64,000 nucleotides of DNA from Polyangiaceae bacterium. GTDB taxonomy: Bacteria; Myxococcota_A; Polyangia; Polyangiales; Polyangiaceae. Location of the stretch: NCBI GenBank assembly GCA_050287085.1, contig JBNKBE010000024.1:30283-94282 (forward strand), written 5' to 3'. The notes below the pieces were generated by a model, which did no database searches, was not told where the DNA came from, and was given only the letters and a program-made list of their open reading frames with translations. Positions 13,338-50,461 of this stretch are shown in pieces. The translations under genes and the position numbers were made by a program. Within the stretch, counting starts at the first letter, position 1. Each line of letters begins with the position of its first letter.

Positions 13338-13413
13338 TCCAGAATAGCTCAGTTGGTAGAGCGGTCGGCTGTTAACCGATTGGTCGTAGGTTCGAGTCCT
13401 ACTTCTGGAGCCA
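13338..13413 (+). tRNA. tRNA-Asn (GTT)
   Basis: Acceptor stem TCCAGAA/TTCTGGA, D-arm AGCTCAGTTGGTAGAGC, anticodon loop CTGTTAA, GGTTCGAGTCC T-arm, encoded CCA; 76 nt. Confidence 0.97.
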
Positions 13414-13456
13414 TTTACGGCGGTCCACCAAGAGGTGGGCCGCCACCAGTTCACAG

Positions 13457-13490
13457 AAGCCCCGGTCGGAAACGCCCGGGGCTTTTTCTT
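13457..13490 (+). terminator. Rho-independent terminator after tRNA-Asn
   Basis: AAGCCCCGG..CCGGGGCTT stem followed by TTTTCTT. Confidence 0.85.
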
Positions 13491-13764
13491 GTATCCCCCA
13501 GTCTTCGCAGGCTTCTACGCGACCCGTGACGGTCGCGATGCTCTCGGCCGCGAGCTCGCAGAGATCACGCGCGGTCACGACGACGGTGGTCTCGGGGCGT
13601 CCTCGGCTCTCTGTCTCTGAGATCGGGGAGAGAGCGCGGGGGCCTGGTTTACAGCGCGGCCCGTTTCGTCGGCGGGAGGCTCGAAGGCGGGTTTACTGCG
13701 CGATGGGGACACGCTCCGGTCTCCGAACGGGCAACGAACGCTACTGGACCGGCGCCGCGGCGCA

Positions 13765-16700
13765 TCAGCCGCCTTCGCCGCTCGGGGGCGCTGAGCTTCC
13801 AGAGCCCTCATAGGTCGAGTTGAACACCATGTCCGAGAGCCAGCGCTTGAAGCTCTCGTTGTCGCTGAATTGCTTGAAGAGCTGGGTGTCGTCCTTCATC
13901 AGGCTGATCAGGACGCGCTGGAGGGCCTTATCGTGCTCGATGCGGGCGTTGGTACGATCCGGGCGCTTCCTCGCGTTCTGGTAGGCTGGGTCGGCCGCGA
14001 CACGCTCGGGGATCTCTTCGGTGATCAGCTTGCGAACCCGATCGGCGTCCTCCCACGGGATGTTGCCGAAGAGGTCGTTGAAGGCCTTGATGATGTTCGA
14101 CAGCAGGTCGAGCTCGGGCTCGGGCTTGAAGCCGCCGCCAGCGACCGGTGCGGGCTCGATCTCCGCGTCAGCGTCCGGCAACTGGATCCGCATCGATGCC
14201 TGCTTCTCAACGCGGTAGCTGTCCATGTCAATTGCTTCGAGAATCCCCTTCGAGAGGTCCTCTTCCTTCGGGGATGGCAGCTTGGGCACCAGGAAGTTCA
14301 GGAAGATCGAGAGCTTCTCCCATGCGGCGTTCGTGTACGGCAGAATGGACGAGAGAAAGCCGTAGGCGCGGATGAAGGCCTTCGCTTTTCCCTTGAAGCC
14401 GACCTGCCCATCCTCGTCGAGCTGACCGACGTAGACGGCCACGCACACGTCCAGGATGGGATCCAGCTTGTCGCGCGGCTCTTCGTCCAGGTAACGACGC
14501 ACCAGTTCTTCCACCTGGGCGTCGTCGTAGACCTGCGCGCCGTCGAGGTCAGCTTTCAGATCGTGGAGCTTGTTGGGATCGGTTTCTCCGCTCAGAACGG
14601 TCGTGCGAAAGAACGGCTCGAACGACTTCTCGATGGCCTCGCTGTCGTTCATGAAGTCCAGCACGAACACGTCGTGCTTCTTGGGATGGGCACGATTCAG
14701 ACGAGAGAGGGTCTGAACAGCCTTGATGCCGGACAGCGTCTTGTCGACGTACATGGTGTGCAACAGCGGCTCGTCGTAGCCCGTCTGGAACTTGTCGGCG
14801 CAGATTAGGAATCGGTACGGGTCTTCAGCGACCTTGTCCGCGATTAGGCTCGACGGAAACCCGTTCAGACTGGCTTCGGTCACCTTGACACCGTCGTACT
14901 CGGGCTCGCCGGAGAATGCGACAATTGCCTTGTAGGGACTCTTGCGCTCCTCGAGGTACGCGGTGATGGCGTGAAAGTACTGGATCGCCCTCTGAATGCC
15001 ATTGGTCACCACCATGGCGCGAGCCTCGCCGTCGATCTTGCGGCGATCGATCACCTGCTCGTGGAAGTGGTCGACCATGATCTCAGCTTTGAGTCGGATC
15101 GCATGGTCGTTGCTCTCGACGTAGCGTCGAAGCTTCTTCTTGGCCCTCTTGGTGTCGAACTCCGGGTCAGCGCTGACGGTCTTCACGAGCTTGTAGTAGC
15201 TCTTGACCGGGGTGTAGTGGCGCAGCACATCAAGGATGAAGCCTTCCTGCGTGGCCTGTTTCATGGTGTAGCTGTGGAAGGGCCGTCGCTTGATCTCAGG
15301 ACTGGTCTCAGCCACCTCACCGAATAGCTCGATGGTCTTGCTCTTGGGCGTCGCGGTGAACGCAAAGTAGCTGGCGTTGGGCAGCATCTTCCGCGTCTCC
15401 ATGATGCGGTTGATGCGGTCCTCGTACGTCTCCTCCTCCTCGGCGTCCTGCTCGGACAGTGCCATCGACATCTTTGCGGAAGTCCGCCCACCTTGACTGG
15501 AATGGGCCTCGTCGATGATCACAGCGAAGGTGCGCGTGCGATGGGAGCTGCCCAGCTCTTCAAGTACAAACGGGAAGGTCTGAATGGTCGAGATGATGAT
15601 CTTCTTGCCCGACTCCAGGAAGCTTCGAAGTTGCTTCGTCTTCGACTGACCACCCTCGGTGACTGCTCCCACGGTGGCCCCCACCTGCGCGAACTGCTTG
15701 ATGGTGGCACGGATTTGCTGATCCAGGATTCGGCGGTCAGTGACGACGATGATGGAGTCAAAGGTCGGCTTTCCATCCTGCTGGAGGCGAATGAGCTGGT
15801 GCGCCAACCACGCAATCGAGTTTGACTTGCCGCTGCCCGCTGAGTGCTGGATCAAGTAGCGTCGCCCCGCCCCGCGCTCGCCGGCATCAGCGAGAAGCCG
15901 TCGCACGACATCAAGCTGGTGATAGCGCGGAAATATCTGGACGGTCTTCTTCTTGCCGGTCTTCTCGTTCTTCTCCTCGACGACTTGTGCGTAGTTCTCC
16001 AGGATGTCGGTGAGCCCAGTCGGCGTGAGTATGCGTTTCCAGAGGTAGTCGGTCTTGAGCCCCTCCGGGTTCGGGGGATTGCCCGCACCGTCGTTGTAGC
16101 CCTGATTGAACGGGAGAAACCAGGATGCCTTGCCCTTGAGATGCGTGCAGAACCGGACCTCGTGGTCATCCACCGCAAAGTGGGCAACGCACCGGCCGAA
16201 CTCGAACAGCTTCTCGCCGGGGAGGCGAGTGAGCTTGTATTGCTCGACGGCGTCGGCCACCGTCTGCTTGGTGAGGCTGTTCTTGAGTTCAAAGGTGGCT
16301 ACGGGAAGTCCGTTGATGAAGATCGCGAAGTCGAGTGCCCGCTGCGTTTCGTCACGGCTGTACCGGAGCTGGCGAGCGACCGAGAACCGATTGCACCGAA
16401 ACCGCTCTTCGGCGGCCACGTTGCCCGGCGTGGGCGTGCCGTAGAAGAGGTCGACATGGTGAGGGCCGTGCTCGATGCCGTTCCGCAAAACATCGATGAC
16501 GCCGCGCTTGCTGATCTGGCCTTGGAGCCGAGCGAGGAACTTTCGGCGAGTGGGGCCGTCGGCGGCCAGACCAAGCTCATCTACCAAGTCGTCCTGCGTG
16601 AGGCCGATGAACCCGGCGAGCTGCACCAAATCCACCGTGTACTCGCGATCGTAGTGGGTCGGATCACCAAGGATCCAGCCGGTGCCGCCGGCTACTGGCG

Positions 16701-16806
16701 CAGAGGTTCCCGTTGGCTTGTACGCCGGCACCAGGATGTCGGTCCGACCGGTCATGGCCCGGAGGATGAGCTCTTCGAGGCCCTTCTCGCTGGTGTCGGT
16801 CGTCAT
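13765..16806 (-). CDS. hsdR: Type I restriction endonuclease subunit R
   Basis: FELKN nuclease motif, HSAGSGKS Walker A, IIDEAH, FTATP, KFQTGYDEP, QTLSRLNR. Confidence 0.93.
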   Translation of the reverse strand: MTTDTSEKGLEELILRAMTGRTDILVPAYKPTGTSAPVAGGTGWILGDPTHYDREYTVDLVQLAGFIGLTQDDLVDELGLAADGPTRRKFLARLQGQISKRGVIDVLRNGIEHGPHHVDLFYGTPTPGNVAAEERFRCNRFSVARQLRYSRDETQRALDFAIFINGLPVATFELKNSLTKQTVADAVEQYKLTRLPGEKLFEFGRCVAHFAVDDHEVRFCTHLKGKASWFLPFNQGYNDGAGNPPNPEGLKTDYLWKRILTPTGLTDILENYAQVVEEKNEKTGKKKTVQIFPRYHQLDVVRRLLADAGERGAGRRYLIQHSAGSGKSNSIAWLAHQLIRLQQDGKPTFDSIIVVTDRRILDQQIRATIKQFAQVGATVGAVTEGGQSKTKQLRSFLESGKKIIISTIQTFPFVLEELGSSHRTRTFAVIIDEAHSSQGGRTSAKMSMALSEQDAEEEETYEDRINRIMETRKMLPNASYFAFTATPKSKTIELFGEVAETSPEIKRRPFHSYTMKQATQEGFILDVLRHYTPVKSYYKLVKTVSADPEFDTKRAKKKLRRYVESNDHAIRLKAEIMVDHFHEQVIDRRKIDGEARAMVVTNGIQRAIQYFHAITAYLEERKSPYKAIVAFSGEPEYDGVKVTEASLNGFPSSLIADKVAEDPYRFLICADKFQTGYDEPLLHTMYVDKTLSGIKAVQTLSRLNRAHPKKHDVFVLDFMNDSEAIEKSFEPFFRTTVLSGETDPNKLHDLKADLDGAQVYDDAQVEELVRRYLDEEPRDKLDPILDVCVAVYVGQLDEDGQVGFKGKAKAFIRAYGFLSSILPYTNAAWEKLSIFLNFLVPKLPSPKEEDLSKGILEAIDMDSYRVEKQASMRIQLPDADAEIEPAPVAGGGFKPEPELDLLSNIIKAFNDLFGNIPWEDADRVRKLITEEIPERVAADPAYQNARKRPDRTNARIEHDKALQRVLISLMKDDTQLFKQFSDNESFKRWLSDMVFNSTYEGSGSSAPPSGEGG

Positions 16807-17861
16807 GCCTCAGCCCCGCTCAATGGTGCGCACCAGCCCTTACGCGAGAGAACATTCAGAGCCAGGTGGATTTGCCGGTCGGAGAATTGCCGCTTGCGGT
16901 CGTTCCAGCCGTGAATCTCGGAGATAACTTCGTCTGCGGATTGCGGTTGTTTGCGAGTGGCTACCCAGTGAACAGTCGACAGAAGCTCGAGCCCAAAGGG
17001 CGACTCGAAGCCGTCGACGAGTTCGGAGACCTTCTGAAGGTGTGACCGCGTCGCCTCCTTGCCCTCGAGGAAGCTCTGAGCATCGCTCAGCGCCTTCGGG
17101 ACGAGCTCGAGTTGCTTGTCCGGAGCGTCGCCACCATCGGCGTAACCGGAAACCATGTGGCCCTCGATGGCATTGAGGACGTGACGCAGGTTCTCTGCGT
17201 AAGGGCCGTAGTGCGCTTCTCTGTACTTGAGCTTCAGCGGCTCTCCAGCCTCTTGGAGGAAGTACATCAGCTTGTGTAGCTCGAGTAGCGTCACGAAAGG
17301 ATCGAGCAGACCTGCTAGATATCGGTCCATCAGCGTGACCAGCGCCGCGCGTCCCGGCGTCATGTTCGGGACGTCGCTGGACCGATTCGGTCGCTCGTTG
17401 GGCTTGGCGTCTCGCGGCTCGAAGACCACGACTCGCACGTCTTCGAGGTTACTCAGCGCGCCCTCGATGCGCGCTCGAACCTGATTCCAGTCGAGACCCC
17501 CAAGGCCTGCACCGAGTGGCGGAATCGCGATCGATCGGATACCGCGCGCGCGAATTTCTTCGGCCAGAGCGACGAGGCCCGACTCGATATCCTCCATCCT
17601 GCTCTTGCCACGCCAGTGCCGCTTGGTCGGGAAGTTGATGATGTACCGCGGGTTCATGAGACGGCCCGTCTCGAAGACGAACATCCGTCCCGGCTCCACC
17701 TGCTTGCGCTTGCACGCGGCCGCGTAGACCTTGAAGTTCTCCGGGTAGGTCTTCTTGAACTGCAGCGCGATACCGCGCCCCATGACGCCAACGCAGTTGA
17801 CCGTGTTCACGATTGCCTCGCAGTCCTCTGCGAAGAGGTCTCCTGTCTTGTAGGTGATCAT
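16803..17861 (-). CDS. darG: DarG antitoxin (macrodomain DNA ADP-ribosylhydrolase + C-terminal domain)
   Basis: GDLF..NTVNCVGVMGRGIALQFK, INFPTKRHW, PPLGAGLGGLDW; C-term KLMYFLQ..YGPY..GFESPFGLELLSTVHW; alternative start 17879. Confidence 0.9.
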   Translation of the reverse strand: MITYKTGDLFAEDCEAIVNTVNCVGVMGRGIALQFKKTYPENFKVYAAACKRKQVEPGRMFVFETGRLMNPRYIINFPTKRHWRGKSRMEDIESGLVALAEEIRARGIRSIAIPPLGAGLGGLDWNQVRARIEGALSNLEDVRVVVFEPRDAKPNERPNRSSDVPNMTPGRAALVTLMDRYLAGLLDPFVTLLELHKLMYFLQEAGEPLKLKYREAHYGPYAENLRHVLNAIEGHMVSGYADGGDAPDKQLELVPKALSDAQSFLEGKEATRSHLQKVSELVDGFESPFGLELLSTVHWVATRKQPQSADEVISEIHGWNDRKRQFSDRQIHLALNVLSRKGWCAPLSGAEA

Positions 17862-17878
17862 GGTCTTCTCCCTCTTCA

Positions 17879-18523
17879 TCAGTAGTACCAACCCGGTATC
17901 TGCTCGACTGGCGGTCGATGGGCCGAGTGCTGGAGGCTCGCCAGCACCTTCGTCCGGGTGGCGATCGACTGCACCCCAACGCGCGTCACGAGTTCCCAGG
18001 GGAACTGCCGCTCCACGAGGAACTCGGCTTGTTTGCCCTCCTTGTGGGCTCGCCAGTCCGTGGCCTGAACCGCGGCCCAATCCACCTGATCGAGCTGAGC
18101 CAGGTCCGCCCGATCCTCGAAGTAGTAGGCGCCGGCATTGGAGAGCGTGAAAGCCCACCGCAGTCCGTTGCTCTCGGCCCACGACACAGTCGCCGCCAGG
18201 TCTGCCTCGAGGTGGACAATCGGGCCTTGCCCCCCCCGATAGCTCAACTCGTGGTGATTGCTCTGGTAGAGCAGGTACAGCATGATCGAGCGAGGGCAGA
18301 AGTAGAACGGTACGCAATCACCAACGTGAAGGCTCGGATGGCTGTCGAGAGTCAACTCCGTCAGTCGACGCTGTTTGATGTTGCTCATGCCGATCGTGGT
18401 GCCCGAGTTCCCAGCGCGCGCCACCATCGTCGCGTCGCACCAAAGCCACCCGTCGCCAAGGATCGACGGCAATCGATCCTCGTGGACGATGTGGTAAATC
18501 TTTGGCTGCGCGGGGACCGGCAT
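17879..18523 (-). CDS. darT: DarT DNA ADP-ribosyltransferase toxin (DUF4433)
   Basis: IYHIVH, VPFYFCPRSIMLY, FTLSNA, KQAEFLV catalytic QxE; directly upstream of darG. Confidence 0.9.
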   Translation of the reverse strand: MPVPAQPKIYHIVHEDRLPSILGDGWLWCDATMVARAGNSGTTIGMSNIKQRRLTELTLDSHPSLHVGDCVPFYFCPRSIMLYLLYQSNHHELSYRGGQGPIVHLEADLAATVSWAESNGLRWAFTLSNAGAYYFEDRADLAQLDQVDWAAVQATDWRAHKEGKQAEFLVERQFPWELVTRVGVQSIATRTKVLASLQHSAHRPPVEQIPGWYY

Positions 18524-18525
18524 CT

Positions 18526-19917
18526 TCAGTTCTCCACGCCTTCGTCTTCGTCGAATTCGTCGCCCGAGTCCTCAGCGTCGATATCCATCTCTTCCGGGTG
18601 AATGAGCGAATCGGGCAGATTGGAGGCAGCTTCCCGCACGTCGAGCTGCCCCGTCACAACGTCGGCGATGAGCCGGGACCGGTACTCACGTAATAGCTCT
18701 ACCTCTCGGCGCGCTACGGACAATGCCGACTCGATCTCCGAGGACTCGACCTCTATCGCCCGGAGGATCTCCTCTTGCTCGTCCAACGGGGGAAGAGGTA
18801 CCCACAATCTCCCAAACTGGTCGGTGTAGAGGCGCATGAATCCGGAGGACCCAGTACCGAGCCCCTTGGAGGCGAGACGAAACTCGGAGCACATCGCCTC
18901 AGTCTTGAAGAGACTCAGGTAGTACGAGGGGACGACGGTACTTGCTGGAACAAATACCGCGTAGTCGGGGCTGACGAGACCCGCCTGAGTCGGGACACCG
19001 AAGATCCCAATTGCCGCCCGCATACGGTTCATCACCAGCTGGCCTGGGACCACGTGCTTGTATCCGACAAGGGCGCTAGGCGGGATTGGCTTGTCGGAGA
19101 CATCCTCATGCGGAACGAGCCCCTGATACATCCTAAGCGACAAGAGCGTTTCGGTTCCGGTCTCGCTCCGCTTGTTGACCTCGCGGAAGAGCGTCTTCAG
19201 TCGTCGAACTTCCCAATGCTCCGGTACGTCGCCAAGCCACTCAACGCCGGACGGCTTAAGGCGCGCACCGGGATTAACACCTTGAGTGACAGCACGATGG
19301 ATGATGACCCGCTTCTGCTCCTCTAGCAGCTTGATGAGCTTCTTCTTCGCCTGGATGTAGCGTTGGATGCGGCCATTCGCGTAGCCGAGAAACCTGACGA
19401 TTGCTGCTTGCTCTTCGAGCGGAGGGAGAACCGCCGTCACGCGCTTCAGGTGGGGCCAGTACAGGTTTCTCTGGATAGAACCCACGCCTTTGGAACACAC
19501 CAGGTACTGACTGACCATTGTGCGTTCCCGGAAGAGCAGGTTCGCAAAGTCCGGGCGAAGTCTAGAATTGAGTGACAGCACGAGGTACGCAGGGCTTACG
19601 ATTCCTTTGTGCGCAGAAACACCCACCGAGCCGCGCCACGCCTGCTGGTTGTTTAGGACGAAGTCCCCGGGGTCCACCGCTTGGTACTTCGACAGGTCCT
19701 TGCTGGTTGCGTTGGTTCTCTTCTCCTCTACGTCCGAAAAACGGACGACGCCGAGATGCAGGTACACAGAGAGTAGTTCCCGGTGCTCCTTGTTGGTTAC
19801 AGACTTCGGACGAGCCAGCGCGCACAATGGCGCAGCATCCCAATGCGCTGGAATCTCAGGCAGCCACGAAATGGATGTGGGCCGCATCGTGGGATAGCCT
19901 TGCAGATCTTGAATCAC
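18526..19917 (-). CDS. hsdS: Type I R-M specificity subunit S
   Basis: Two TRDs separated by conserved PPLEEQ..SGVEWLGDVPEHW regions; ends VVTGQLDV. Confidence 0.9.
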   Translation of the reverse strand: MIQDLQGYPTMRPTSISWLPEIPAHWDAAPLCALARPKSVTNKEHRELLSVYLHLGVVRFSDVEEKRTNATSKDLSKYQAVDPGDFVLNNQQAWRGSVGVSAHKGIVSPAYLVLSLNSRLRPDFANLLFRERTMVSQYLVCSKGVGSIQRNLYWPHLKRVTAVLPPLEEQAAIVRFLGYANGRIQRYIQAKKKLIKLLEEQKRVIIHRAVTQGVNPGARLKPSGVEWLGDVPEHWEVRRLKTLFREVNKRSETGTETLLSLRMYQGLVPHEDVSDKPIPPSALVGYKHVVPGQLVMNRMRAAIGIFGVPTQAGLVSPDYAVFVPASTVVPSYYLSLFKTEAMCSEFRLASKGLGTGSSGFMRLYTDQFGRLWVPLPPLDEQEEILRAIEVESSEIESALSVARREVELLREYRSRLIADVVTGQLDVREAASNLPDSLIHPEEMDIDAEDSGDEFDEDEGVEN

Positions 19918-22247
19918 GGGCTCACCCCTCCAACGATTTCGGCAAGAAGCCCCTCCGTCTCCTTCTCAAGTACGGCGATGTCAGAGCGGATCTCGGCGAG
20001 TGTGCGGAGCGGTGCAGGCTTGTAGAAGTGTCGGGTGAAGCTCACCTCGTAGCCGATCTTGGCGCTCTTCGCGTCGTACCAGGCGTCCTCCGCGTAGGGC
20101 AGCACCTCTCGACGAATGAAGGCGTCGATGCCGCCATCTTCGAGCAGAGGCACCTGTTCGGTATCGCGCAGGTCCGGGTCGTGCTCGTACTCAACGACAC
20201 ACGGCTTTCCGTCTATGGTCGCTTCAAAGCGCCCGTGTAGCGGGCTGGCTTTGGCTTTTCCTGGCCTGTGCTGCTTCTTGACCACGCGCGCGGCCCTGGC
20301 GTCGGTCCAGCTAACCGCCGCGTAGATGGCCTTCTTCTCGGTGGCGGTCAGCTTGTGGCCCAGTCGCGCCAGCTCAGCCTCTACCTGGGCTCGGAACGCG
20401 TTGTGGTCCATGAAGACTTCTTTGCCGAGCGCAGACCTCAGTGCAGCCCCTATCTCGGCTAGCTTGGCGTCGCGTGCCCACGTCTTTGGATCGAGAAGCT
20501 TCTTCTGCTTCTTTGCGGGGATCTCTTTCTGCTCTGAACCGCCATCCTCATCGTCGTCCGACTTGCCCCAGTTCTCAATGAGCTGCTTCAGGGCGCCGGC
20601 GATCTTGGAAAAGTTCTCGAAGAGGTCTTCGCCAAGTTCTTCGTAGAGGGCTTGCCGAAGCTCGCTGTCGCCCGAAGCGAATCGGAGACTTTCGATATTG
20701 CTCACGGTGAGCTGACTGCAAAGGCGCAAGGGGCGGTCCACCGTGACCTTCCAATAACCGAATGCCTTGTTCTCGAAGAGCTTCGAGTGCTCACTCTCCT
20801 CCATCGTCAAGAACGCCCGGCAGATGCGCTCAATATTGTCCGCGCTGAGCTCGCAGTTCTTCTGCCCCAGATTCCTCCTCAGCGGCACATACCATTCGGT
20901 GGCATCGATGAGCTGGATCTTGCCTCGCCGCTCGGGGGTCTTTCGATTGGAAAGCACCCAGATGTAGGTGGCGATGCCTGTGTTGTAGAACATGTTCAGT
21001 GGCAGCGCGACGATGGCTTCGAGCAGGTCGTTTTCGATGATCCATCGCCGGATGTTGCTCTCGCCCTGGCCCGCATCACCGGTGAAGAGCGATGAACCAT
21101 TATGTACCTCGGCGATGCGGCTGCCGAGCTTGGTGCCTCGCTTCATCTTCGAGACCATGTTGGCCAGGAAGAGCATCTGCCCATCGCTCGAACGCGTGAT
21201 GAGAGAGAACTCTGGGTCACCATCGTGCTCGACGATGAAGCGCGGATCTTTCAAGCCACTCTTGCCACCCATCCGTTCGAGGTCGCTCTTGTAGCTCTTT
21301 CCGTAAGGAGGATTCGACAACATGAAGTCGAACTCTCGCGACGGGAACGCATCGCTAGACAGGGTGGAGTGCTCGGGCCCACCAACCAGGTTGTCAGCGT
21401 CGTCGCCCTCGCCCTTGAGCAGAAAGTCAGCCTTAGCGATCGCGTAGGTCTCGGCGTTGATCTCTTGCCCGAACATGTGCGTGACGACTTTCTTGCCACG
21501 CTCATTGGCGAGTGTTTCGAGGGTCTCCTCAGCGACAGTCAGCATCCCACCGGTACCGCAGGCGCCGTCGTACAGGAGGTAGGTCCCCGACTCGATCCTG
21601 TCAGCGATCGGCAGGAAGATGAGCTTAGCCATCAGGCGCACGGCATCGCGCGGAGTCCAGTGCTCTCCCGCCTCCTCGTTGTTGTCCTCGTTGAAGCGAC
21701 GAACCAGCTCTTCGAAAACCGTGCCCATGGCATGGTTGTCGAGGCCAGGGTGCTTCACCGTGTTGTTGCCGTTGAGCACCGGCTTCGGGCTCAAGTTGAT
21801 AGCGGGGTCGAGGAACTTCTCGATCAACGTGCCAAGCGCGTCTGCGCGGGAAAGCTTGGGTACCTGGTGGCGAAAGTCGAAATTGCTGATGATCTCTTGC
21901 ACGTTTGGCGAGAAGCCATCCAGGTAGGCGATGAAATCGTCGCGTAGGTTCTGCTGGCTGGCCCGATGGCGCAGGTCGCGTAGCGTGAACTTCGACGTGT
22001 TGTAGAACGCCTCACCCGCGGCCTGACGCAAGGCTTGATCTTGGTTGGTGACGCCAGCCTCGTCCAATGAGGCTTTCATCTCGAGGACGCCCTTCTTGGT
22101 GCCCTCAAGCACGGCATCCAGGCGCCGAATCACGACCATTGGGAGAATGACGTCGCGATACTTCCCGCGCACGTACAGGTCCCTGAGCACATCGTCTGCG
22201 ATGCCCCAGATGAAGTTGGTGATCCAGCTCAGCTCAGAACTCTTCAT
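19914..22247 (-). CDS. hsdM: Type I R-M methyltransferase subunit M (m6A)
   Basis: AGEHWTPRD, YDGACGTGGML, GQEIN, SNPPY; start at MKSSELSW with SD. Confidence 0.93.
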   Translation of the reverse strand: MKSSELSWITNFIWGIADDVLRDLYVRGKYRDVILPMVVIRRLDAVLEGTKKGVLEMKASLDEAGVTNQDQALRQAAGEAFYNTSKFTLRDLRHRASQQNLRDDFIAYLDGFSPNVQEIISNFDFRHQVPKLSRADALGTLIEKFLDPAINLSPKPVLNGNNTVKHPGLDNHAMGTVFEELVRRFNEDNNEEAGEHWTPRDAVRLMAKLIFLPIADRIESGTYLLYDGACGTGGMLTVAEETLETLANERGKKVVTHMFGQEINAETYAIAKADFLLKGEGDDADNLVGGPEHSTLSSDAFPSREFDFMLSNPPYGKSYKSDLERMGGKSGLKDPRFIVEHDGDPEFSLITRSSDGQMLFLANMVSKMKRGTKLGSRIAEVHNGSSLFTGDAGQGESNIRRWIIENDLLEAIVALPLNMFYNTGIATYIWVLSNRKTPERRGKIQLIDATEWYVPLRRNLGQKNCELSADNIERICRAFLTMEESEHSKLFENKAFGYWKVTVDRPLRLCSQLTVSNIESLRFASGDSELRQALYEELGEDLFENFSKIAGALKQLIENWGKSDDDEDGGSEQKEIPAKKQKKLLDPKTWARDAKLAEIGAALRSALGKEVFMDHNAFRAQVEAELARLGHKLTATEKKAIYAAVSWTDARAARVVKKQHRPGKAKASPLHGRFEATIDGKPCVVEYEHDPDLRDTEQVPLLEDGGIDAFIRREVLPYAEDAWYDAKSAKIGYEVSFTRHFYKPAPLRTLAEIRSDIAVLEKETEGLLAEIVGGVSP

Positions 22248-22296
22248 TCTTGGTCTCCGGCGGGAAGAGTCCCCCCACGAATCTGTGTCTTCATCC

Positions 22297-22491
22297 TCAT
22301 TGCTCGTCCGCGGCCTTGTTGGCCGCTTCTTCCTTCTGTTTCGCAATCCACTTGTCGAGATCCGCCTTCTCGAACCGCCAGCTTCCGCCCACCTTGAACC
22401 CAGGGAGCTCGCCCCGATTCACCAGCCGGTACACCGTCTTTGGATCGATGTTCAGGTATTCAGCGACGTCCTGGACGGTCATGGCGGTCAT
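22297..22491 (-). CDS. Excisionase-family HTH DNA-binding protein
   Basis: MTVQDVAEYLNIDPKTVYRLVNRGELPGFKVGGSWRF typical HTH_17; SD GGGAG. Confidence 0.85.
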   Translation of the reverse strand: MTAMTVQDVAEYLNIDPKTVYRLVNRGELPGFKVGGSWRFEKADLDKWIAKQKEEAANKAADEQ

Positions 22492-30702: not shown

Positions 30703-30945
30703 TCAGGCCGCCTCGGCAGCCAGGGAATCCATCTCGTCGAGCAGTCCGTGCAGGGCGCTCTTCGCCTCGTCGCTCGGGCGCGGACCCGAGCGGTTCAGGT
30801 GGGCTCGGAAGACGCGACCGAGGGCATCGGCCGTCGCCTCCACAAGCTCGGGCTCGGCGTCGTAGAGCTCGAAGAGCCCGATGAGGCTGAGCGTCACTTC
30901 TCGAAAGGCGCGGGTGAGCGCCGGTCGCTGGTCTTTGGTGCTCAT
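30703..30945 (-). CDS. Hypothetical protein (80 aa)
   Basis: Strong SD AAAGGAGG; coding-like composition. Confidence 0.65.
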   Translation of the reverse strand: MSTKDQRPALTRAFREVTLSLIGLFELYDAEPELVEATADALGRVFRAHLNRSGPRPSDEAKSALHGLLDEMDSLAAEAA

Positions 30946-31880
30946 GGCTTCTGACCTCCTTTGCGGGCTCGGTGGGTTCCGCCGTGCGGCGGGCTTGCCG
31001 AGTCACAGGAGGTCAAAGCCTGGGTGGGGTTCGGTCGGGGACACGCGGTTTGGGGACACTCGAAATCGACCCGCAGCTCCGCGAGCACCTCACGCAGCCG
31101 AGCGATGGCCCGCGAGTGGCGCCGCTTGATGCGCTGGTAGGTTCGACGCCGCTCCGGTGGGGACAGGTCCGGGTGAACGCGATCGACGTACGACGTCAGC
31201 AGCTCGCCGCGCACCAGAGTGGCGACCACCAGCTCGAGCTTGTCGCCGTCCAAGATGTGACCGGCGCGCTCCACCAAGAACGACACCAGCGCGGCGTTCT
31301 CCTTCGGATCGCGGCGGCGCGGCTTGTTCGGCTTGGTCTCGGGCCAGCTCGCCAGGTGCCCCAGGGTTTCGAGATCGTCTTGCCTGCGCGAGATGTCGTC
31401 GGGGTCGTCGAAGCGCACCTGCTCGAGGTCGCGTTGCTCGGCCCGCACCCGCTTGAAGACCTCGCGCTGGGTCATTTGGCGCAGGTACATGCAGGTGCGA
31501 TCGCGCCGCTGACTCAGTGGGAAGTCGCGGACGACCTCGAAGAACGACGAGAGCACGATCTGGTCGAGGTCGTCGCCCGGGACGGCGTCACCGAAGATGC
31601 GACCACGCAGACGCGCCAGCATCGGGTAGAAGGCGACGACGAGCACCGCATTCCAGAACGGATGCGGCCGTCGCTTGTGCTCGCGGAGCAGCGCCCGGGT
31701 GAGCGCCTCCTTCTCCGCGTAGCGCAGCGCCGATTCGTCGCCGAGGACGGCGAGCACGCTGAGCACGGTCTCGTGCTCGCGCAGCTCCAGTTGGTGTTTC
31801 TTGGCTTCTTCAAAACGCTTCTGGTTTCTCTCTGCACGCACCTCGGCTCTGAGGGCGCACTTCATCTGATGAAGGCCCAT
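30942..31880 (-). CDS. Phage-encoded sigma70/ECF-like factor
   Basis: Region-2-like DDLDQIVLSSFFEVVRDF..YLRQMTQREVFK and region-4-like C-term IKRRHSRAIARLREVL; SD GGAGG. Confidence 0.65.
   Translation of the reverse strand: MGLHQMKCALRAEVRAERNQKRFEEAKKHQLELREHETVLSVLAVLGDESALRYAEKEALTRALLREHKRRPHPFWNAVLVVAFYPMLARLRGRIFGDAVPGDDLDQIVLSSFFEVVRDFPLSQRRDRTCMYLRQMTQREVFKRVRAEQRDLEQVRFDDPDDISRRQDDLETLGHLASWPETKPNKPRRRDPKENAALVSFLVERAGHILDGDKLELVVATLVRGELLTSYVDRVHPDLSPPERRRTYQRIKRRHSRAIARLREVLAELRVDFECPQTACPRPNPTQALTSCDSASPPHGGTHRARKGGQKP
31012..31042 (-). promoter_or_regulatory. Phage motif copy GTCCCC-N17-GCTTTGAC upstream of the replication operon
   Basis: Matches six + strand copies; its 3' part pairs with the SD/start region of gene 30703-30945. 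Confidence 0.7.
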
Positions 31881-32036
31881 GGGCTCCTCCGCTCGCGGCG
31901 GTGGCCATCGGCGCGTCCCGGCTGGGGCGCGGTGCCGATGGGCCTCGAGGAGCCTCTGGCGTTGCCGCTCAGTTACTGGTTGTTGGTCAATGGGCCGCCG
32001 CCACGACCACCGCGACGACGGCGGACGTCATCGCGG

Positions 32037-32252
32037 CTACGCACACCTCCGTTCGTGACGGGGGTGGGCATTGCGGGTGTCCAGACGGTTCGCGGCGCCG
32101 CACTTGCGGCAGTCGGTCGCGAGCTCGCCGCGCACGCGGTAGACCGCCGTCTTGTAGCGGACCTCGACCTCGTCGCCGGTGGCGACGCCGAGGAGCGTGC
32201 CGCACTTGCGGCAGCGCCACTGAGAGTTCTGGTGCCCAATTCCTGACTGCAT
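32037..32252 (-). CDS. Mu Com-like Zn-ribbon protein
   Basis: WRCRKCGTLLG..EVEVR..DCRKCGAAN; SD GGAGG. Confidence 0.65.
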   Translation of the reverse strand: MQSGIGHQNSQWRCRKCGTLLGVATGDEVEVRYKTAVYRVRGELATDCRKCGAANRLDTRNAHPRHERRCA

Positions 32253-32401
32253 CTTGTCCTCCGGTTGTTCGGGCTCCGGGGACTTCCCGGACGCCTCGAA
32301 CCGGAGGCGCGACACAGCGATTCGCCGCCGCGACATTTGGCGTCGCGGCAGAATTTCTTCAGAAAATCAGCGGTGTGGGCGATCGGAGACGACGGGCGAG
32401 G

Positions 32402-34465
32402 CTAGGTCTCCCAGGCCACCGCGGTGTCTCGGTACTGGAGGAAGAAGCCCTTCTTCACCTGCGCGTGGAGGTACTTACCGCAGGGTTTGTGGGCCTTCTC
32501 GATCTCCTTGATGGCGCGGTTGATGGCCTTGGTCACGGCGTCCCGAGCCCGCTTCTGGTCTGGATTCTCGCGGCGCTTCTTGCCCCCGGCGCCGGTCTCG
32601 GCAGAGAGATACTGCGCGAGCTGTGCGATCTGGTCGTCGAACTTGGCGACGGCGTCCATGTCGCAGAACTCCTCGGCCTCGTCGCGCTGTTCCTTCAGCT
32701 TCTCGTAGGCCTCGCGGACGTTCTTGATCGTCTCGTCGTCCGCCCCAAGTGCAGTGGCCATCGGTCTGGATGCCGCCGTGTTGCCCTCTTCGATGTCGAT
32801 GAGCGCGAAGGCGTCGAGGGTCTCTCCGGGGCGCTGCAAGAGCGTGTGTAGATAGGTGAGTCCCTTCTGTGGGCTCAGCGAGAACGGCTTGCCCCCGCGG
32901 AAGCGCACCGTCCAGTTCTGCCCGAATTTGCGGAAGACGTACTCGCTCTCCACCTGAAGTGCTGGGTCAGCGTCGAACGACGGATCCGTTCCGGGTGCCT
33001 GCTGGCCCCGCGCGAACAGGATTGCCGGCAAGGAGTCCGGCGACAGCGAGCCCGGCGTGCGGATGCACTTCGCCATCTTCGCCAGCGTCTCGGAGATCAC
33101 TCGCCCGACGTCTGTGCCGTGGCGCTTGTGCATCTCGAAGATGTTCTTCGACACGGTGTCGCCGTCGTTCCCGGACAACTCCATCATGGCTGGGATGGCC
33201 CGGGCAGCCTCGCCGAAGCTGCCGAGGAACTGGTCGGCGTTGGCAAAGCTGGTGAACTGGTCGGCAGCATCGATGTAGTCGAGCACCAGCGCCCGATCGC
33301 CGTCCTTCTTCCACTCGCCCTTGATGAGGTCGACCTCGTAGCCTTCTTCGGGGTCCTCGTTGTCGAGCCCTCGAGCCAGGACGGAGAAGCGGCGGTCGAT
33401 GCACTGCGAGCATACGCCGCAGTGAGGGTGCATCGTGCTGCTTCGGTGGACGTGGGCACAGCTCACGGTGTGGCGCAGCATCCCTGCGGCGCCGGCGTCG
33501 TTGATGACGTCCAGCACCTCGGCGCGCGTCTTGAGCTCGAACGGGTTCTCGACCGCCATCGGCTTGCCCCGAGCCAACCCGAGAATCTTGGCGAAGCCGA
33601 GCAACACCCGGGGGTGGGTGGTCCGAGTCGCACGCGCACCAACGATCTGAGGAGAGATGGGCAGATTGAAGCTCGTCGTGCCGTTCTCGTAGAACCGGAT
33701 CTTGTCGTGGCCGATGATGTGGGCGACGGTGCCGGCCATCGCGGCGTAGAGGAACGAACGCGAGCGCTGCGTTCGCTCCTTCCGTAGGGCCTTGTCGTGC
33801 TTGTGGACCTGGATGCCGACGTGCGGGATGCCGTTGCGCGACGACCAGGTCTGCAGATCACTGACCAGCTCGCGCTGGGTCTTCCAGGTCTTCGACGCGC
33901 TCCGGTGGCTGACGAGTACCGGGCTCTGCTTGTCGATGGCGAGCGCCTGCACCGCGCCGCCGAACGAGTCCATTCCGCCCGAGAAGAGCTGAACGACGTC
34001 GATGTCTTTCCAACCCCCGACCAACGGCTCGCCATTGGGCCCAGTGAACTTGAGCTGCTCGGGTTCTCGGTTCGCCAGCGCCTCGAACTCGAAGGTGTAG
34101 CTGTCGTCGGAGAGGAAGCCGAGCGTCGACTGGAGGGCCTCGACCATCTCCTGCGAGTTCCATAGGTCGGGCTCCTCGACGGCGACCACGAAGTGCAGGT
34201 CGCGGCGCCAGTTGTCGCCCAGGTCGATGCGATCAGCATCACCTCGCGGGAACGCCTGGTCGGCCGCGATGACGTACGAGGCCACCCGCACGAGGTCCTT
34301 CATCACCGGTGGGATGTTCGCGATCAGATTGCTGGCCAGCCCCTCGATGTCGACGGTGAGGTTGGCGTCCGGCCCCGACACCGCGAGGCGCAACGCATCC
34401 TCAGGCGCAGAGGCGTGATTCGCCCCGCCACAGAGGATCCAGCGCTCGCCCGCGGAGGAGCTCAT
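32402..34465 (-). CDS. QueC-family PP-loop protein (QatC-like) fused to C-terminal winged-HTH-like domain
   Basis: LFSGGMDS PP-loop, ERTQRSRSFLY, TRTTHP, NPFELKT, SCAH..HCGVCSQCIDRR Zn site; C-term KGLTYLHTLLQRPG..RARDAVTKAINRAI. Confidence 0.8.
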   Translation of the reverse strand: MSSSAGERWILCGGANHASAPEDALRLAVSGPDANLTVDIEGLASNLIANIPPVMKDLVRVASYVIAADQAFPRGDADRIDLGDNWRRDLHFVVAVEEPDLWNSQEMVEALQSTLGFLSDDSYTFEFEALANREPEQLKFTGPNGEPLVGGWKDIDVVQLFSGGMDSFGGAVQALAIDKQSPVLVSHRSASKTWKTQRELVSDLQTWSSRNGIPHVGIQVHKHDKALRKERTQRSRSFLYAAMAGTVAHIIGHDKIRFYENGTTSFNLPISPQIVGARATRTTHPRVLLGFAKILGLARGKPMAVENPFELKTRAEVLDVINDAGAAGMLRHTVSCAHVHRSSTMHPHCGVCSQCIDRRFSVLARGLDNEDPEEGYEVDLIKGEWKKDGDRALVLDYIDAADQFTSFANADQFLGSFGEAARAIPAMMELSGNDGDTVSKNIFEMHKRHGTDVGRVISETLAKMAKCIRTPGSLSPDSLPAILFARGQQAPGTDPSFDADPALQVESEYVFRKFGQNWTVRFRGGKPFSLSPQKGLTYLHTLLQRPGETLDAFALIDIEEGNTAASRPMATALGADDETIKNVREAYEKLKEQRDEAEEFCDMDAVAKFDDQIAQLAQYLSAETGAGGKKRRENPDQKRARDAVTKAINRAIKEIEKAHKPCGKYLHAQVKKGFFLQYRDTAVAWET

Positions 34466-35232
34466 GCATCCCCCCTCCGCAGCTCAAGCCGCATTTTCTT
34501 GAGCGCGTAGCCGACGAAGCGCGCGGTTCGGTCCTCGGTGAGGTCCTTCTCGAAGCGCGCCTTCGAGTACCAGGTGCCAGCGAACTTCTCGACGATCTTC
34601 GAGGCCTGCTTGCAGTGAAGGTCGAGGGCTTCGTTGAATCGGCGCTGCTCGGCGGCGCTGCCAAATCGTTTGTCGGGGCCGACGTGCTGCGGGAGCTCGC
34701 GACTGACGTAGTAGGTCAAGAAGCGCTGCGCGAAGCGGGCGAAGAAGTCGCGAGCGACCGTGCCGAACTGCTTCTCAGTGGCGAGCTTGGAGACCTCACG
34801 GCGGACGTCATCTGGGGTCGAGCCGAAGAGGCTCTGGGTGCGACCGCTGACGAGCGATGCGAGCGTCTCGACCGCGGCCGACTGCGCCATGTCGCCGAGG
34901 TCGGTGCGTCGCCTCGTGCTGTTGATGTGGCGGTCGATGGCGTCGGAAAGCGCCGCAGACAGCTCGGCCGTCGATGGCGAGGCCGATACGTCGATTCCCA
35001 GGCCCCGAAGAGCCGACGCGAAGTCTTCACTACGTGCGGCATCAGGGAGCTGGGTCAGCAGATAGAACGAGCGCAGGACACCGGGGTCGGATGCAGCGCG
35101 GGCGAGGTCACCTTCGGCTGCATCGAGGGTCGCGGAGGCCACCGCCGCGGAGCTCGCGCTGCCACCGATGAGCTCAACGACCTCGTTCCACCGCTTTGTG
35201 CGCGGGAGCCTGCCGAGGCGGATGTGTCCCAT
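34462..35232 (-). CDS. Helical partner protein with N-terminal Gly (MGHIRLG..), QatB-like by context
   Basis: Coupled on both sides (TGATG with repressor, ATGA with QueC-like gene); all-alpha pattern; assignment by analogy only. Confidence 0.6.
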   Translation of the reverse strand: MGHIRLGRLPRTKRWNEVVELIGGSASSAAVASATLDAAEGDLARAASDPGVLRSFYLLTQLPDAARSEDFASALRGLGIDVSASPSTAELSAALSDAIDRHINSTRRRTDLGDMAQSAAVETLASLVSGRTQSLFGSTPDDVRREVSKLATEKQFGTVARDFFARFAQRFLTYYVSRELPQHVGPDKRFGSAAEQRRFNEALDLHCKQASKIVEKFAGTWYSKARFEKDLTEDRTARFVGYALKKMRLELRRGDA

Positions 35233-35804
35233 CAGCGAGCCTCCTTGCCGCGGAGATTCCGCCGAACCTCGATCACCTTGCCGATCACCTCGGGCCCGCC
35301 GGGTCCGGTGGCGCGCACGAGGTTGGCGGCGCTCTTGGATGCTGCGGCCAGGACGATGTCCCCCGCGACGACCGCCACGCCACGAGCGACGATCACAACG
35401 TCACCCACAGCGATGTCCGGCGACGGTGCCTTGAGCTGTTCCGTGACCCGCACCGCGAAGAGCTCCTCGTCGCCGTCATCGACCGTGATCCAGCCGTCGA
35501 CGTCCTTGGTGAGCGCCGCCCGCTTGCGCAGCGGCGGCTTGGCGACGATGGGCACCTTGCGGATCCCGGGCCCAGTCTCCTCGTCCGGCAGGCGGCCGGT
35601 TGGCTTCCAGCTACGGCCCGTCCCCTCCTCGTGGTCGACGAAGCCCTTCTTCTTCAGCGCCACCAGATGCTGGTAGGCCGTGGACCGGCCCACCGCGATG
35701 GCCTCAGCCACGTCGGCGACGCTCGGCGCCATGCCGCGCTCGCGCCAGAACCGCTCGACCACCTCGAGCACGGTTCTCTGCTTGTCGGTCAGCCCCCGTG
35801 CCAT
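35232..35804 (-). CDS. LexA-like repressor with degenerate S24 domain
   Basis: LTDKQRTVL..PSVADVA..STAYQHLVALKKKGFV LexA wHTH; C-term FAVRV..GDVVIV..VIGKV but no Ala-Gly site or GDSM. Confidence 0.8.
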   Translation of the reverse strand: MARGLTDKQRTVLEVVERFWRERGMAPSVADVAEAIAVGRSTAYQHLVALKKKGFVDHEEGTGRSWKPTGRLPDEETGPGIRKVPIVAKPPLRKRAALTKDVDGWITVDDGDEELFAVRVTEQLKAPSPDIAVGDVVIVARGVAVVAGDIVLAAASKSAANLVRATGPGGPEVIGKVIEVRRNLRGKEAR

Positions 35805-35814
35805 CCCTGGAAAC

Positions 35815-35849
35815 TACCGAACAAATGTCCGTGCATCAAATGTTCGGTA
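35815..35849. promoter_or_regulatory. Candidate repressor operator(s)
   Basis: Perfect IR TACCGAACA-N17-TGTTCGGTA containing two tandem Cheo-like boxes, CGAAC-AAAT-GTCCG and GCATC-AAAT-GTTCG, about 10 nt upstream of the lexA-like ATG. Confidence 0.65.
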
Positions 35850-35856
35850 TTTGGAT

Positions 35857-36142
35857 GTGGACGGGACCGTGGCCGCCCGTGGACAGGTTGGCGGCCGCGG
35901 GCTTCCGTCACGATTCCGGGTGGTTGAGCCCAGTGGACGGTGTGGACGGCTTTGTGCGACCAGGGAGCAGCTTGCAGAGAGCCGTTGATTTGCTCGCCGG
36001 AGCACGCCTGTGTGGGCACCCGTTCTCTTCGTAGAAGTGAGAGAAGAATCTTGTCCATCCTGTCCACACAGACTCAACCGGCTGAATCGGCTCCGGTTTT
36101 TCCGGGACAGGGTGCGCGTCCACAGGCGTCCACCGTGTCCAC
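35857..36142. repeat. Degenerate ~90-bp inverted repeat built of GTGGAC iterons; candidate replication origin
   Basis: Left arm GTGGAC x4 + CGATTC + GGTTGAG mirrored by CTCAACC, GAATCG and GTCCAC x4 in the right arm. Confidence 0.6.
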
Positions 36143-36166
36143 GGCGCCCTCGGCGCCGATGCCGTC

Positions 36167-36196
36167 GTCCCCTCTCGTCGTCGCCGTCGCTTTGCC
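36167..36196 (+). promoter_or_regulatory. Phage motif GTCCCC-N16-GCTTTGCC
   Basis: Exact 16-nt spacing, about 30 nt before ATG 36226. Confidence 0.75.
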
Positions 36197-36225
36197 CCTC
36201 CGGACACATGCACCGGAGGTTCTCC

Positions 36226-36396
36226 ATGAAAAGCGCTCTGCCGATTGAGGCCCGTCGCCCGGCCCGTGAGGAGGTGGTCGACATCCTGGCCGCCACCCTG
36301 ATCCAAATGCTCGCCCGCGGTCTCGAACCCAACCGCGGCGACGAACCCGACAAGGAGGAACCGGCGGCTGAGGCCGAGGCCGACCCATGTCACTGA
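36226..36396 (+). CDS. Small hypothetical protein (56 aa)
   Basis: SD GGAGG; overlaps the next gene. Confidence 0.6.
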   Translation: MKSALPIEARRPAREEVVDILAATLIQMLARGLEPNRGDEPDKEEPAAEAEADPCH

Positions 36397-47763: not shown

Positions 47764-48037
47764 TTGGCCAGGGAACGTGCATCGACAGAGCGAGCGGCCG
47801 ACGCCGCGAACGAGCTGAAGGCGATCCGGGAACGGGTCGTCGCCCTCGAGAAGCGTCTGCGCGATGAGGCCTCGCCCGAGGCGGTCGCCGAGCTGCAGAA
47901 GGAGGTCGAGTCGCTGACGCGCGTGCTCACGGAGCTCGCCGAGGCACCTCCAACCGCTTCTCCTGAGCCCTGGCCCCGAGACCTCAACAGCCAAGCCGCC
48001 GATGCGACCTGGGGCGGCGACCCGGAGGGCCTCCGCG

Positions 48038-48045
<8 letters not shown>
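47764..48045 (+). CDS. Small coiled-coil protein ending in WPRDLN motif
   Basis: SD GGAGG + TTG start; heptad pattern. Confidence 0.6.

Positions 48046-50460
<2,415 letters not shown>

Positions 50461-50461
<1 letters not shown>

Follow-up and report, generated by a model that had tools for sequence, protein, structure and literature searches.

A QatB/QatC-like gene pair with interchangeable output domains in the control region of a Polyangiaceae prophage

Introduction

The window analysed here (64,000 nucleotides of a Polyangiaceae bacterium, GenBank assembly GCA_050287085.1, contig JBNKBE010000024.1, positions 30,283 to 94,282) contains a prophage, recognised by its terminase, portal, capsid, sheath, tube, tape measure and serine recombinase genes together with DUF2924, and in its control region three minus-strand genes encode a LexA-like protein, a partner protein that begins with MGHIRLG (B) and a QueC-family enzyme (C). 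The question raised by this locus is what an enzyme resembling QatC, with a single partner and an additional C-terminal domain, is doing beside a phage repressor. A preliminary description had regarded the three genes as a minimal QatBC-like module that conjugates a deazaguanine (CDG) to the partner and has a DNA-binding output of its own. The open reading frames (ORFs) at 32402-34465, 34462-35232 and 35232-35804 were confirmed, and their translational coupling was found to be real, the junctions being TGATG and ATGA overlaps. The B-C pair with interchangeable outputs is real and widespread, and no earlier description of it was found in the literature searched. The preferred reading, tentative and held with slightly less than even confidence, is that of a QatBC-like sensor coupled to a transcriptional output that would control the early genes of the prophage. 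The most informative facts were a nuclease-bearing sister branch and a natural swap of the control cassette.

The Gene Pair and Its Distribution

The search and neighbourhood survey recommended earlier for the MGHIRLG family were carried out and revealed a large family whose partner is missed by PADLOC. Homologues of B formed 555 clusters among 7,324 candidates, and scans with an alignment of B gave 80 genome loci (the best 80 of 167) and 33 viral loci, 113 in total, whereas a viral scan with the single protein gave no confirmed locus. C directly follows B in 112/113 loci, a few of the C genes being split or cut (e.g., L026, L034, L038, L052 and L072). Since this two-gene order recurs alongside so many partner homologues, the arrangement is far beyond chance. 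QatA was found in one of the 113 loci, on the opposite strand and about 6 kb away, and QatD in none, with at least 2.5 kb of upstream sequence in 83 loci and at least 900 nt of downstream sequence in 98/112, which bears out the proposal of a minimal QatB/QatC-like pair without QatA and QatD. Neither DpdA/TGT nor que genes were present among the recurrent neighbours. The hosts belong to Myxococcota, Acidobacteriota, Planctomycetota and Alphaproteobacteria, the nearest named B homologues being from Myxococcota/Deltaproteobacteria metagenome bins. Searches by tblastn of 50,697 phage and 72,556 plasmid records gave no match to B, a result that reflects low sensitivity and not absence, because a divergent plasmid member exists (L215, hidden Markov model E = 3.5e-40).

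The Met-Gly start of the partner proved to be conserved. Among the 120 B homologues listed, one of which is B itself, 113 start with MG and 2 with VG (115/120), and the remaining five mostly look like mis-called starts; in the fetched loci, Gly follows the start in 112/113 and Gly-His in 102/113 (loose pattern), within the motif MGH(I/E)R(L/V)G. No match to B was obtained in Pfam, PADLOC, NCBIfam, PHROGs or PDB sequences. Its model (predicted local confidence, pLDDT, 89) was matched to QatB chain 9y01_A by Foldseek with a probability of 0.95 and TM values of 0.51/0.59, but with E = 0.77, and by VIA-align with Z = 11.9 and a root-mean-square deviation (rmsd) equal to 4.1 over 210 aligned residues, the next entry reaching 6.2. 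A wide structural search with B gave a best Z of 5.8 and did not list QatB, which was recovered only by a second look. QatB was also the nearest named family in the ESM Atlas (0.89, a lead), and the hhalign comparison with canonical QatB was weak (E = 0.005, probability 7%). The fold of B starts at about residue 9 and that of QatB at residue 64, so that the N-terminal tail of B is only about 8 residues long.

C matched QatC in PADLOC (E = 2.3e-52), scored 196 bits against the NCBIfam QatC model, below its cut-off of 280, and aligned with the solved QatC chains 9zee/9vlk (E ~1e-29). The PP-loop and zinc cysteines noticed earlier were confirmed, with their conservation taken from an alignment of 73 family members (Table 1). 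In this alignment T282 is kept in 71/73 and T/S280 in 72/73 members, and these residues stand where Cap9 and QueC have Y-x-D; according to the available parts of PMC13279940 and PMC13329287, the Tyr/Asp pair that binds deazaguanine in Cap9 and QueC corresponds to two threonines in QatC. Canonical QueC was rejected as an identity, since C scored 16.7 bits against TIGR00364 (cut-off 150) and the signature YPDC / VPxRN / YxQxHxxE of QueC, a protein of about 220 amino acids (aa), is not in C. A Cap9-type system was also rejected, on the T-x-T in place of Y-x-D and on the all-alpha, QatB-like partner. In two quick trees, evaluated by the approximate likelihood-ratio test only (SH-aLRT; no bootstrap, midpoint root, no order of events claimed), the C family formed a separate branch (SH-aLRT values of 95 and 100) that left out 7-9 canonical QatC proteins of complete qatABCD operons. 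As judged by sequence, C (687 aa) belongs with the QatC-like PP-loop/zinc enzymes and has the QatC threonine motif.

Output Domains

The extra C-terminal domain of C is present as described earlier but is larger than the ~170 aa given, at about 185 aa (residues ~502-687). The proposal that it supplies a DNA-binding output was upheld in part. Its model (pLDDT 91.6) has a winged-helix-like fold, with a best, middling Z of 8.2 to BaeR (93 aligned, rmsd 3.2) that was tied with hairpin-only matches, and further rows to CssR, GlnR, ArlR, CadC and ToxR; by Foldseek the top rows were all OmpR-family response-regulator DNA-binding domains, but with non-significant E values of at least 0.095, and the tail has no Pfam match. 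On this model, the best reading of the window-type tail is an OmpR/PhoB winged helix into which a helical hairpin is inserted. Among 96 complete tails, 48 were window-type, 7 formed a Trans_reg_C group (all 3 members scanned match Trans_reg_C), 19 belonged to another group without a Pfam match and the rest to small groups, the C core being kept whole with at least eight different tail groups. A profile of the tail gave 17,668 representatives. Of the best 150, 126 had an N-terminal part, including a QatC-like cluster of 26, an AAA/TPR cluster of 14 and 11 proteins like Y (see below); receiver, GAF, cNMP or CBS domains precede the tail in a few, and most N-terminal domains have no Pfam label. 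Because the same tail ends all of these proteins, it is, by its distribution in sequences, a general output domain. When the window was compared with its close relative L001, B was 99.2%, the C core 97.1% and the tail 61.5% identical, and the first ~100 nt past the C stop codon (in 32253..32401) differ from near-identical relatives together with the tail. The tail and the adjacent DNA thus appear to vary together, as would be expected of a regulator and its site. In six acidobacterial loci (L024, L037, L038, L042, L050 and L052), an extra domain of ~350 aa, of no recognised type, lies between the C core and a short terminal helix-turn-helix (HTH)-like piece.

Through the plasmid match, a sister branch came to light that has the same B and C core but ends in REase_DpnII-MboI (PF18742). 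This domain was found in 120/120 sister proteins among the matches listed (P0297-P0416), its D/E/K residues were invariant in 40/40 and the PD-(D/E)xK site looks intact. The nuclease tail was present in 70/80 metagenome loci (L226-L305), and B adjoins C in 57/59 of the loci with room, the other two having B and a split C; the partner motif is MGHER(V/L)G. Neither QatA nor QatD was found in the 80 loci (0/80), a serine recombinase was found in 3/80 and, with the queries used, none had the c9/sigma/com early genes. PADLOC defence matches (E <= 1e-25) lie near 9/22 loci scanned (99 neighbours), a count that has no background control. The nuclease branch is, from these sequence features, a candidate undescribed two-gene anti-phage system. 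On the tree, the branch of the window, with HTH-type tails (24 rows, support 91), is separate from the nuclease branch (16 rows, support 99).

Nuclease-branch loci are often beside restriction-modification (RM) or abortive-infection (Abi) genes. In one of the 80 sister-branch loci (L254:3543-5768), visual inspection of the sequence showed the same core to carry a zinc-ribbon and a domain resembling class III nucleotide cyclases. A third QatC-like architecture was observed on alphaproteobacterial plasmids (L219:2941-6644 and L222:2839-6571), where a 187-aa MSDGPH protein, which starts with Met-Ser, accompanies a QatC-like enzyme, an XRE/IrrE fusion and a PDC-S70-like gene; this enzyme falls outside both Qat and the B-C family on the tree.

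Exchange of the Control Cassette

The place of the module in the prophage control region was supported by cassette exchange and by early-gene context. Of the four closest prophages, three (L145, L147 and L148) are 83-95% identical to the window on both sides of ~32023-36374 and have a different cassette inside, composed of an intact LexA gene, two genes X and Y, both of no known type, and a different com gene. The fourth, L146, has the B-C cassette and is possibly the same record as L001, the two being counted once. The swap moves the repressor, its upstream repeats and com together. Lambdoid immunity regions likewise exchange repressor, operators and early gene as a unit. In other relatives, the slot holds an XRE repressor with an IrrE/ImmA protease (L171), XRE/CI-type HTH genes (L149 and L160) or X/Y (L168, and L114 with LexA). 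Across the HTH branch, a co-oriented early or replication-type gene lies within 5 kb in 83/97 loci with at least 1.5 kb downstream, and integrase, recombinase or DUF2924 genes occur in 67/112 loci. The sigma-like gene of the window was matched in 28/201 related genomes.

X (~390 aa) and Y (~400 aa) had no match in Pfam, PADLOC, PHROGs or any named Atlas family. Y is fused to a hairpin winged-helix tail in 11/126 representatives; the Y tail of L114/L145 did not match the window tail profile, and a winged helix is not claimed for it. X/Y may be another candidate switch that fills the same slot in many elements.

The LexA-like protein of the window has an intact DNA-binding domain, and alignment showed that it has lost the Ala-Gly pair at which cleavage occurs as well as the Ser (GDSM) and Lys of catalysis, which we take to be the residues of self-cleavage; all five other LexA proteins in the alignment, from other cassettes, retain them. 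The window LexA is therefore probably not cleavable in response to RecA. LexA-like matches were obtained in 5/113 loci, and coupling to the B gene was seen only in the window and two close relatives, L001 and L002. The LexA-like gene is for this reason local to the prophage lineage and not part of the wider B-C family, and its inclusion as a component of the system, as in the preliminary description, did not hold; as a family member it was rejected. The repeat region upstream of this gene (35815..35849) also contains two 10-nt direct copies, 15 nt apart, which are kept in L146 and L002, and is a putative autoregulatory site. In an unrelated element, the partner gene is immediately preceded by a LexA DNA-binding domain that lacks a peptidase domain (L007:1078-1440), which may be another example of the module occurring with a LexA-type gene that is not cleavable. 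Metatranscriptome contigs of the relatives cover the partner and LexA genes and also flanking and intergenic DNA; they cannot show transcription or its level and were not used.

Predicted Complex and Chemistry

Entry of the partner N-terminus into the QueC-type active site, suggested earlier as a check, was modelled with C(1-492), B(2-256), ATP and zinc. For the predicted complex the score was 0.91, and the best of three controls had 0.00; the mark for this score was reached by 116/157 solved and 2/215 mismatched pairs, counts that are only roughly valid here. The runs agreed in at least 86% of contacts, and the partner pLDDT was at least 88. The predicted interface joins B residues 2-11 to C residues 270-276, 278-280, 282, 337, 352-354 and 357, so that the N-terminus of B touches the TxT loop and the zinc-site region, a Gly2 contact itself not being listed. 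B and C are thus predicted to bind 1:1, the N-terminus of B lying at the loop of the active site.

Deazaguanine conjugation, the chemistry originally proposed, was not supported. C has T-x-T and not Y-x-D and, for canonical Qat, the available text of PMC13279940 reports no in vitro activity and that of PMC13639016 neither CDG density nor an intact-mass shift, though an NDG peptide was detected by liquid chromatography-tandem mass spectrometry; CDG conjugation by QatC was not reconstituted in the accessible parts of either source. Among 50 host genomes searched (of 80), 11 had no QueD-family match, and 9 of these 11 also had no match to the QueE query, including the complete chromosome behind L035, most of the others being incomplete bins. 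The QueE survey relied on one query protein, matched in 32/50, and divergent QueE can be missed. CDG conjugation therefore appears possible but doubtful, and an acyl donor other than CDG more likely.

Interpretation

With homology, fold, motifs, gene order, domain swaps, cassette exchange and the predicted complex established by computation, it is the reaction, the trigger, the DNA binding and the direction of control (activation or repression) that we infer. B and C would form a 1:1 complex in which C, with ATP, would acylate or otherwise modify the exposed Gly2 of B with a small molecule once a trigger, such as phage infection or a metabolic change, appears. The B-C core would be a portable sensor, its state being read out by the domain fused to C. 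In the window prophage and most of its branch, the winged helix would bind DNA close to where the early operon begins, and the module would be a modification-dependent transcription switch over com, sigma and replication genes, standing in for the RecA cleavage lost by the adjoining LexA.

Several points weigh against such a switch. Canonical QatB and QatC defend without an output domain, as reported in the available text of PMC13279940, and a variable C-terminal domain would also be expected of a phage-sensing defence protein; a similar covariation of tail and DNA would result from recombination of a block or from variation in a phage sensor. The non-cleavable LexA was found in one lineage only, and the complex score may owe to likeness with the solved QatBC structures. 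RM-like genes lie near 24/112 HTH-branch loci, the B gene directly follows defence-like genes in several of them and the slot may simply border a cargo region. The early-gene count is partly built in, 33/113 loci being from the viral collection and related loci not being independent, and several early-gene clusters without a Pfam label were named by position. Moreover, L005/L076 hold intact LexA with X/Y and B-C together, so that B-C is sometimes present in addition to another cassette.

A close rival, held only somewhat less probable, is an anti-phage system of two genes encoded by the prophage, in which a minimal QatBC modifies Gly2 and brings about abortive infection or a block of the incoming phage. 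The winged helix would then autoregulate the operon, sense phage DNA or halt transcription as an effector, and the place near the repressor would ensure expression in the lysogen. Canonical QatB and QatC suffice against lambda-vir and need Gly2, the PP-loop serines and the two threonines (PMC13279940, in the text available), all of which are kept in B-C. Furthermore, the DpnII/MboI nuclease and PADLOC neighbours of the sister branch mark the core as defence-type, and defence-like genes often adjoin HTH-branch loci. Nevertheless, the HTH and nuclease branches are separate on the tree and differ in context: around the nuclease form recombinases are rare and the early genes were not found with the queries used, whereas most HTH loci stand at the head of an early operon. 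The HTH branch shows no toxic effector domain, and the slot is also filled by ordinary repressor/antirepressor genes. The early-gene switch and the anti-phage function can both hold.

It is unlikely that the pair is mobile cargo without a special tie to the slot, lying at a hot spot of recombination flanked by the integration and replication modules, with HTH tails gained by fusion with a resident regulator gene and with enzyme and tail independent of each other. The occurrence of the same tail behind many unrelated N-terminal domains and of split or truncated C in some loci would agree with it, but the catalytic and zinc residues are near-invariant in the 73 aligned C proteins, and the presence of at least eight tail groups, plus nuclease or cyclase, on an intact core suggests that coupling to an output is selected. 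A metabolic QueC, making preQ0 for tRNA or DNA modification and filling a queC gap of the host, is very improbable, for although the host has QueD-family and QueE-like genes and no canonical QueC over the cut-off, C has the QatC motifs and not YPDC/VPxRN, is obligately paired with B and has no DpdA/TGT among its recurrent neighbours; E. coli QatC fails to complement a queC deletion according to the available part of PMC13329287.

Taken more broadly than the early-gene switch of this prophage, and with slightly greater reserve, QatB/QatC-type N-terminal modification may be a general portable sensor with interchangeable outputs (nuclease, cyclase or winged helix). In Myxococcota, Planctomycetota, Acidobacteriota and Alphaproteobacteria, temperate phages and integrative elements could have domesticated the winged-helix form as an early-gene switch, sensing a competing phage or a QatC-activated metabolite instead of RecA and leaving the non-cleavable LexA as a static repressor. 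Control of early genes by the winged-helix form would, if real, mean that the conjugation of a small molecule to a protein underlies a switch for lysis/lysogeny or element induction, and that an immune sensor has been put to new use as a phage regulator.

Other Features of the Prophage and Host

The features of the locus and of its relatives are collected in Table 1. Structural genes lie to the right of the module, and primase, helicase, DUF2924 and serine recombinase genes to the left; the right end of the prophage is cut by the contig end, which is also the end of the window. The earlier concern that missing qat genes might lie elsewhere was addressed by tblastn of the whole assembly with three canonical qat operons, which found no QatA or QatB match anywhere and, as the sole QatD candidate, a distant, unlinked TatD-like gene on contig C9; one weak KAP match, with Walker A only, lies on C30. 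Missing genes elsewhere in the assembly were thus rejected, though the right end of the prophage is lost. The host assembly (96.8% complete) has no canonical QueC above the cut-off and has QueE-like and QueD-like genes (C7:61372-62070 and C7:160447-160923), that is, a CDG supply without an obvious consumer. A promoter scan of 32253-32401 gave no sigma-70 consensus promoter and terminator-like matches at chance level, and no repeat family was found in 32230-32420.

Table 1. Positions of the features of the module, its cassette and related loci (window coordinates unless a locus is named).
Feature	Position	Strand	Remarks
Putative C-terminal output domain of C, OmpR/PhoB-type winged helix with inserted long helical hairpin	32405..32962	-	
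QatC-like PP-loop enzyme core	32996..34465	-	Residues 1-490 of the 687-aa ORF 32402-34465
PP-loop SGGMDS	33965..33982	-	Residues 162-167; S162 73/73, D166 72/73, S167 72/73
T-R-T-T-H-P motif	33611..33628	-	Residues 280-285; aligns with the motif holding QatC T278/T280
Zinc site C336...C349-x2-C352-x2-C355	33401..33460	-	Four Cys in 73/73 rows
QatB-fold partner B	34462..35232	-	256 aa, all-alpha, N-terminal Met-Gly-His (MGHIRLG); putative substrate of C
LexA-like repressor	35232..35804	-	190 aa; Pfam LexA_DNA_bind 1.4e-14, Peptidase_S24 just 0.008
Operator-like repeats directly upstream of the LexA-like gene	35815..35849		Inverted pair 35815-35823 / 35841-35849
Exchangeable control cassette	32023..36374		Swapped for an unrelated cassette in prophages 83-95% identical on both sides
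Com-like zinc-finger gene	32037..32252	-	Likely start 32252, 71 aa; phrog_6417 E 0.005; within the swapped block
Intergenic stretch before com	32253..32401		Candidate binding site
Sigma-like first conserved early gene	30942..31880	-	Outside the swapped block; label by resemblance, sole match phrog_36246 (function unknown)
Nuclease-branch plasmid member	L215:3201-5845		
X/Y cassettes	L114:5155-7516; L145:3000-5364; L147; L148; L168; L005:843-3980		

Elsewhere in the window, a tRNA-Asn (13338-13413) is followed by a lower-GC block up to 22346 with a type I RM system, in which a DarT gene sits between hsdS and hsdR; the stretch 13338-22346 is likely the left attachment site with prophage defence cargo. 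The ORF at 48002-50461 fuses two D12-class adenine methyltransferase stretches and an XkdF-type head protease domain, a block that is placed differently in the relative L148. A broken second terminase fragment on a different contig (C13:4799-5289) is 93-97% identical to the prophage terminase.

Comparison with Known Systems

Cleavable repressors such as lambda CI and LexA, and ImmR/ImmA (XRE and IrrE), occupy an exchangeable cassette before the early operon, as here, and in relatives of the prophage the same slot holds XRE with IrrE or an intact LexA (families confirmed by Pfam). The difference is that here the repressor appears, from its sequence, to lack the cleavage machinery and that its companions would be an ATP-dependent protein-modifying pair and not a protease. 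One-component OmpR/PhoB (Trans_reg_C) regulators also join a sensor to a C-terminal winged helix, but here a QueC-family enzyme, with B as its putative dedicated substrate, provides the input, and no such input was found in the searches. With Type IV CBASS Cap9/CdnD (10.1101/2025.04.06.647259, as far as its available text goes), a QueC-family enzyme and a Gly2 partner are shared, whereas B-C has no CD-NTase, Cap10 or Cap11 and C is three times longer and has no Y-x-D.

The closest likeness is to qatABCD, whose QatB-QatC core is represented by PDB entries 9y01/9y02, 9zee and 9vlk. C shares SGGxDS, the four-Cys zinc site, RxRxxxF/Y, ExG, TxTxHP and N- and C-terminal extensions with QatC, and in both systems an upstream, translationally coupled, all-alpha QatB-fold partner starts with Met-Gly, the 1:1 complex being predicted here. 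On the other hand, QatA and QatD are missing from B-C loci, and QatB has MGTS on a tail of 30-90 residues whereas B has MGH on ~8 residues. The QatB models of PADLOC and NCBIfam do not detect B, and C lies under the NCBIfam cut-off on its own branch (support 100). B-C is thus likened to QatBC and, on QatA, QatD and the MGTS tail, stands by sequence outside qatABCD. The family is large, and its partner is invisible to the copies of PADLOC, NCBIfam, Pfam and PHROGs that were used. The QatC cluster of PMC13329287 adjoins qatA/qatD in only ~34% of cases, and the available text describes no fused outputs; no description of a QatC and winged-helix or a QueC-like and nuclease fusion was found in the literature searched, although the supplementary tables of the Qat papers may include members. 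The product of QatC, its trigger and the action of modified QatB are questions posed in the accessible parts of PMC13279940, PMC13376578 and PMC13639016. Canonical QatC did not bind DNA by electrophoretic mobility shift assay in the available text of PMC13376578, whereas C carries a fused domain, read as winged-helix, nuclease or cyclase. The B-C family puts a readable output on the enzyme itself in only two genes, either a nuclease, to be followed by DNA cutting or cell death, or a DNA-binding domain, to be followed by a reporter gene, and for this reason its trigger and substrate should be screenable.

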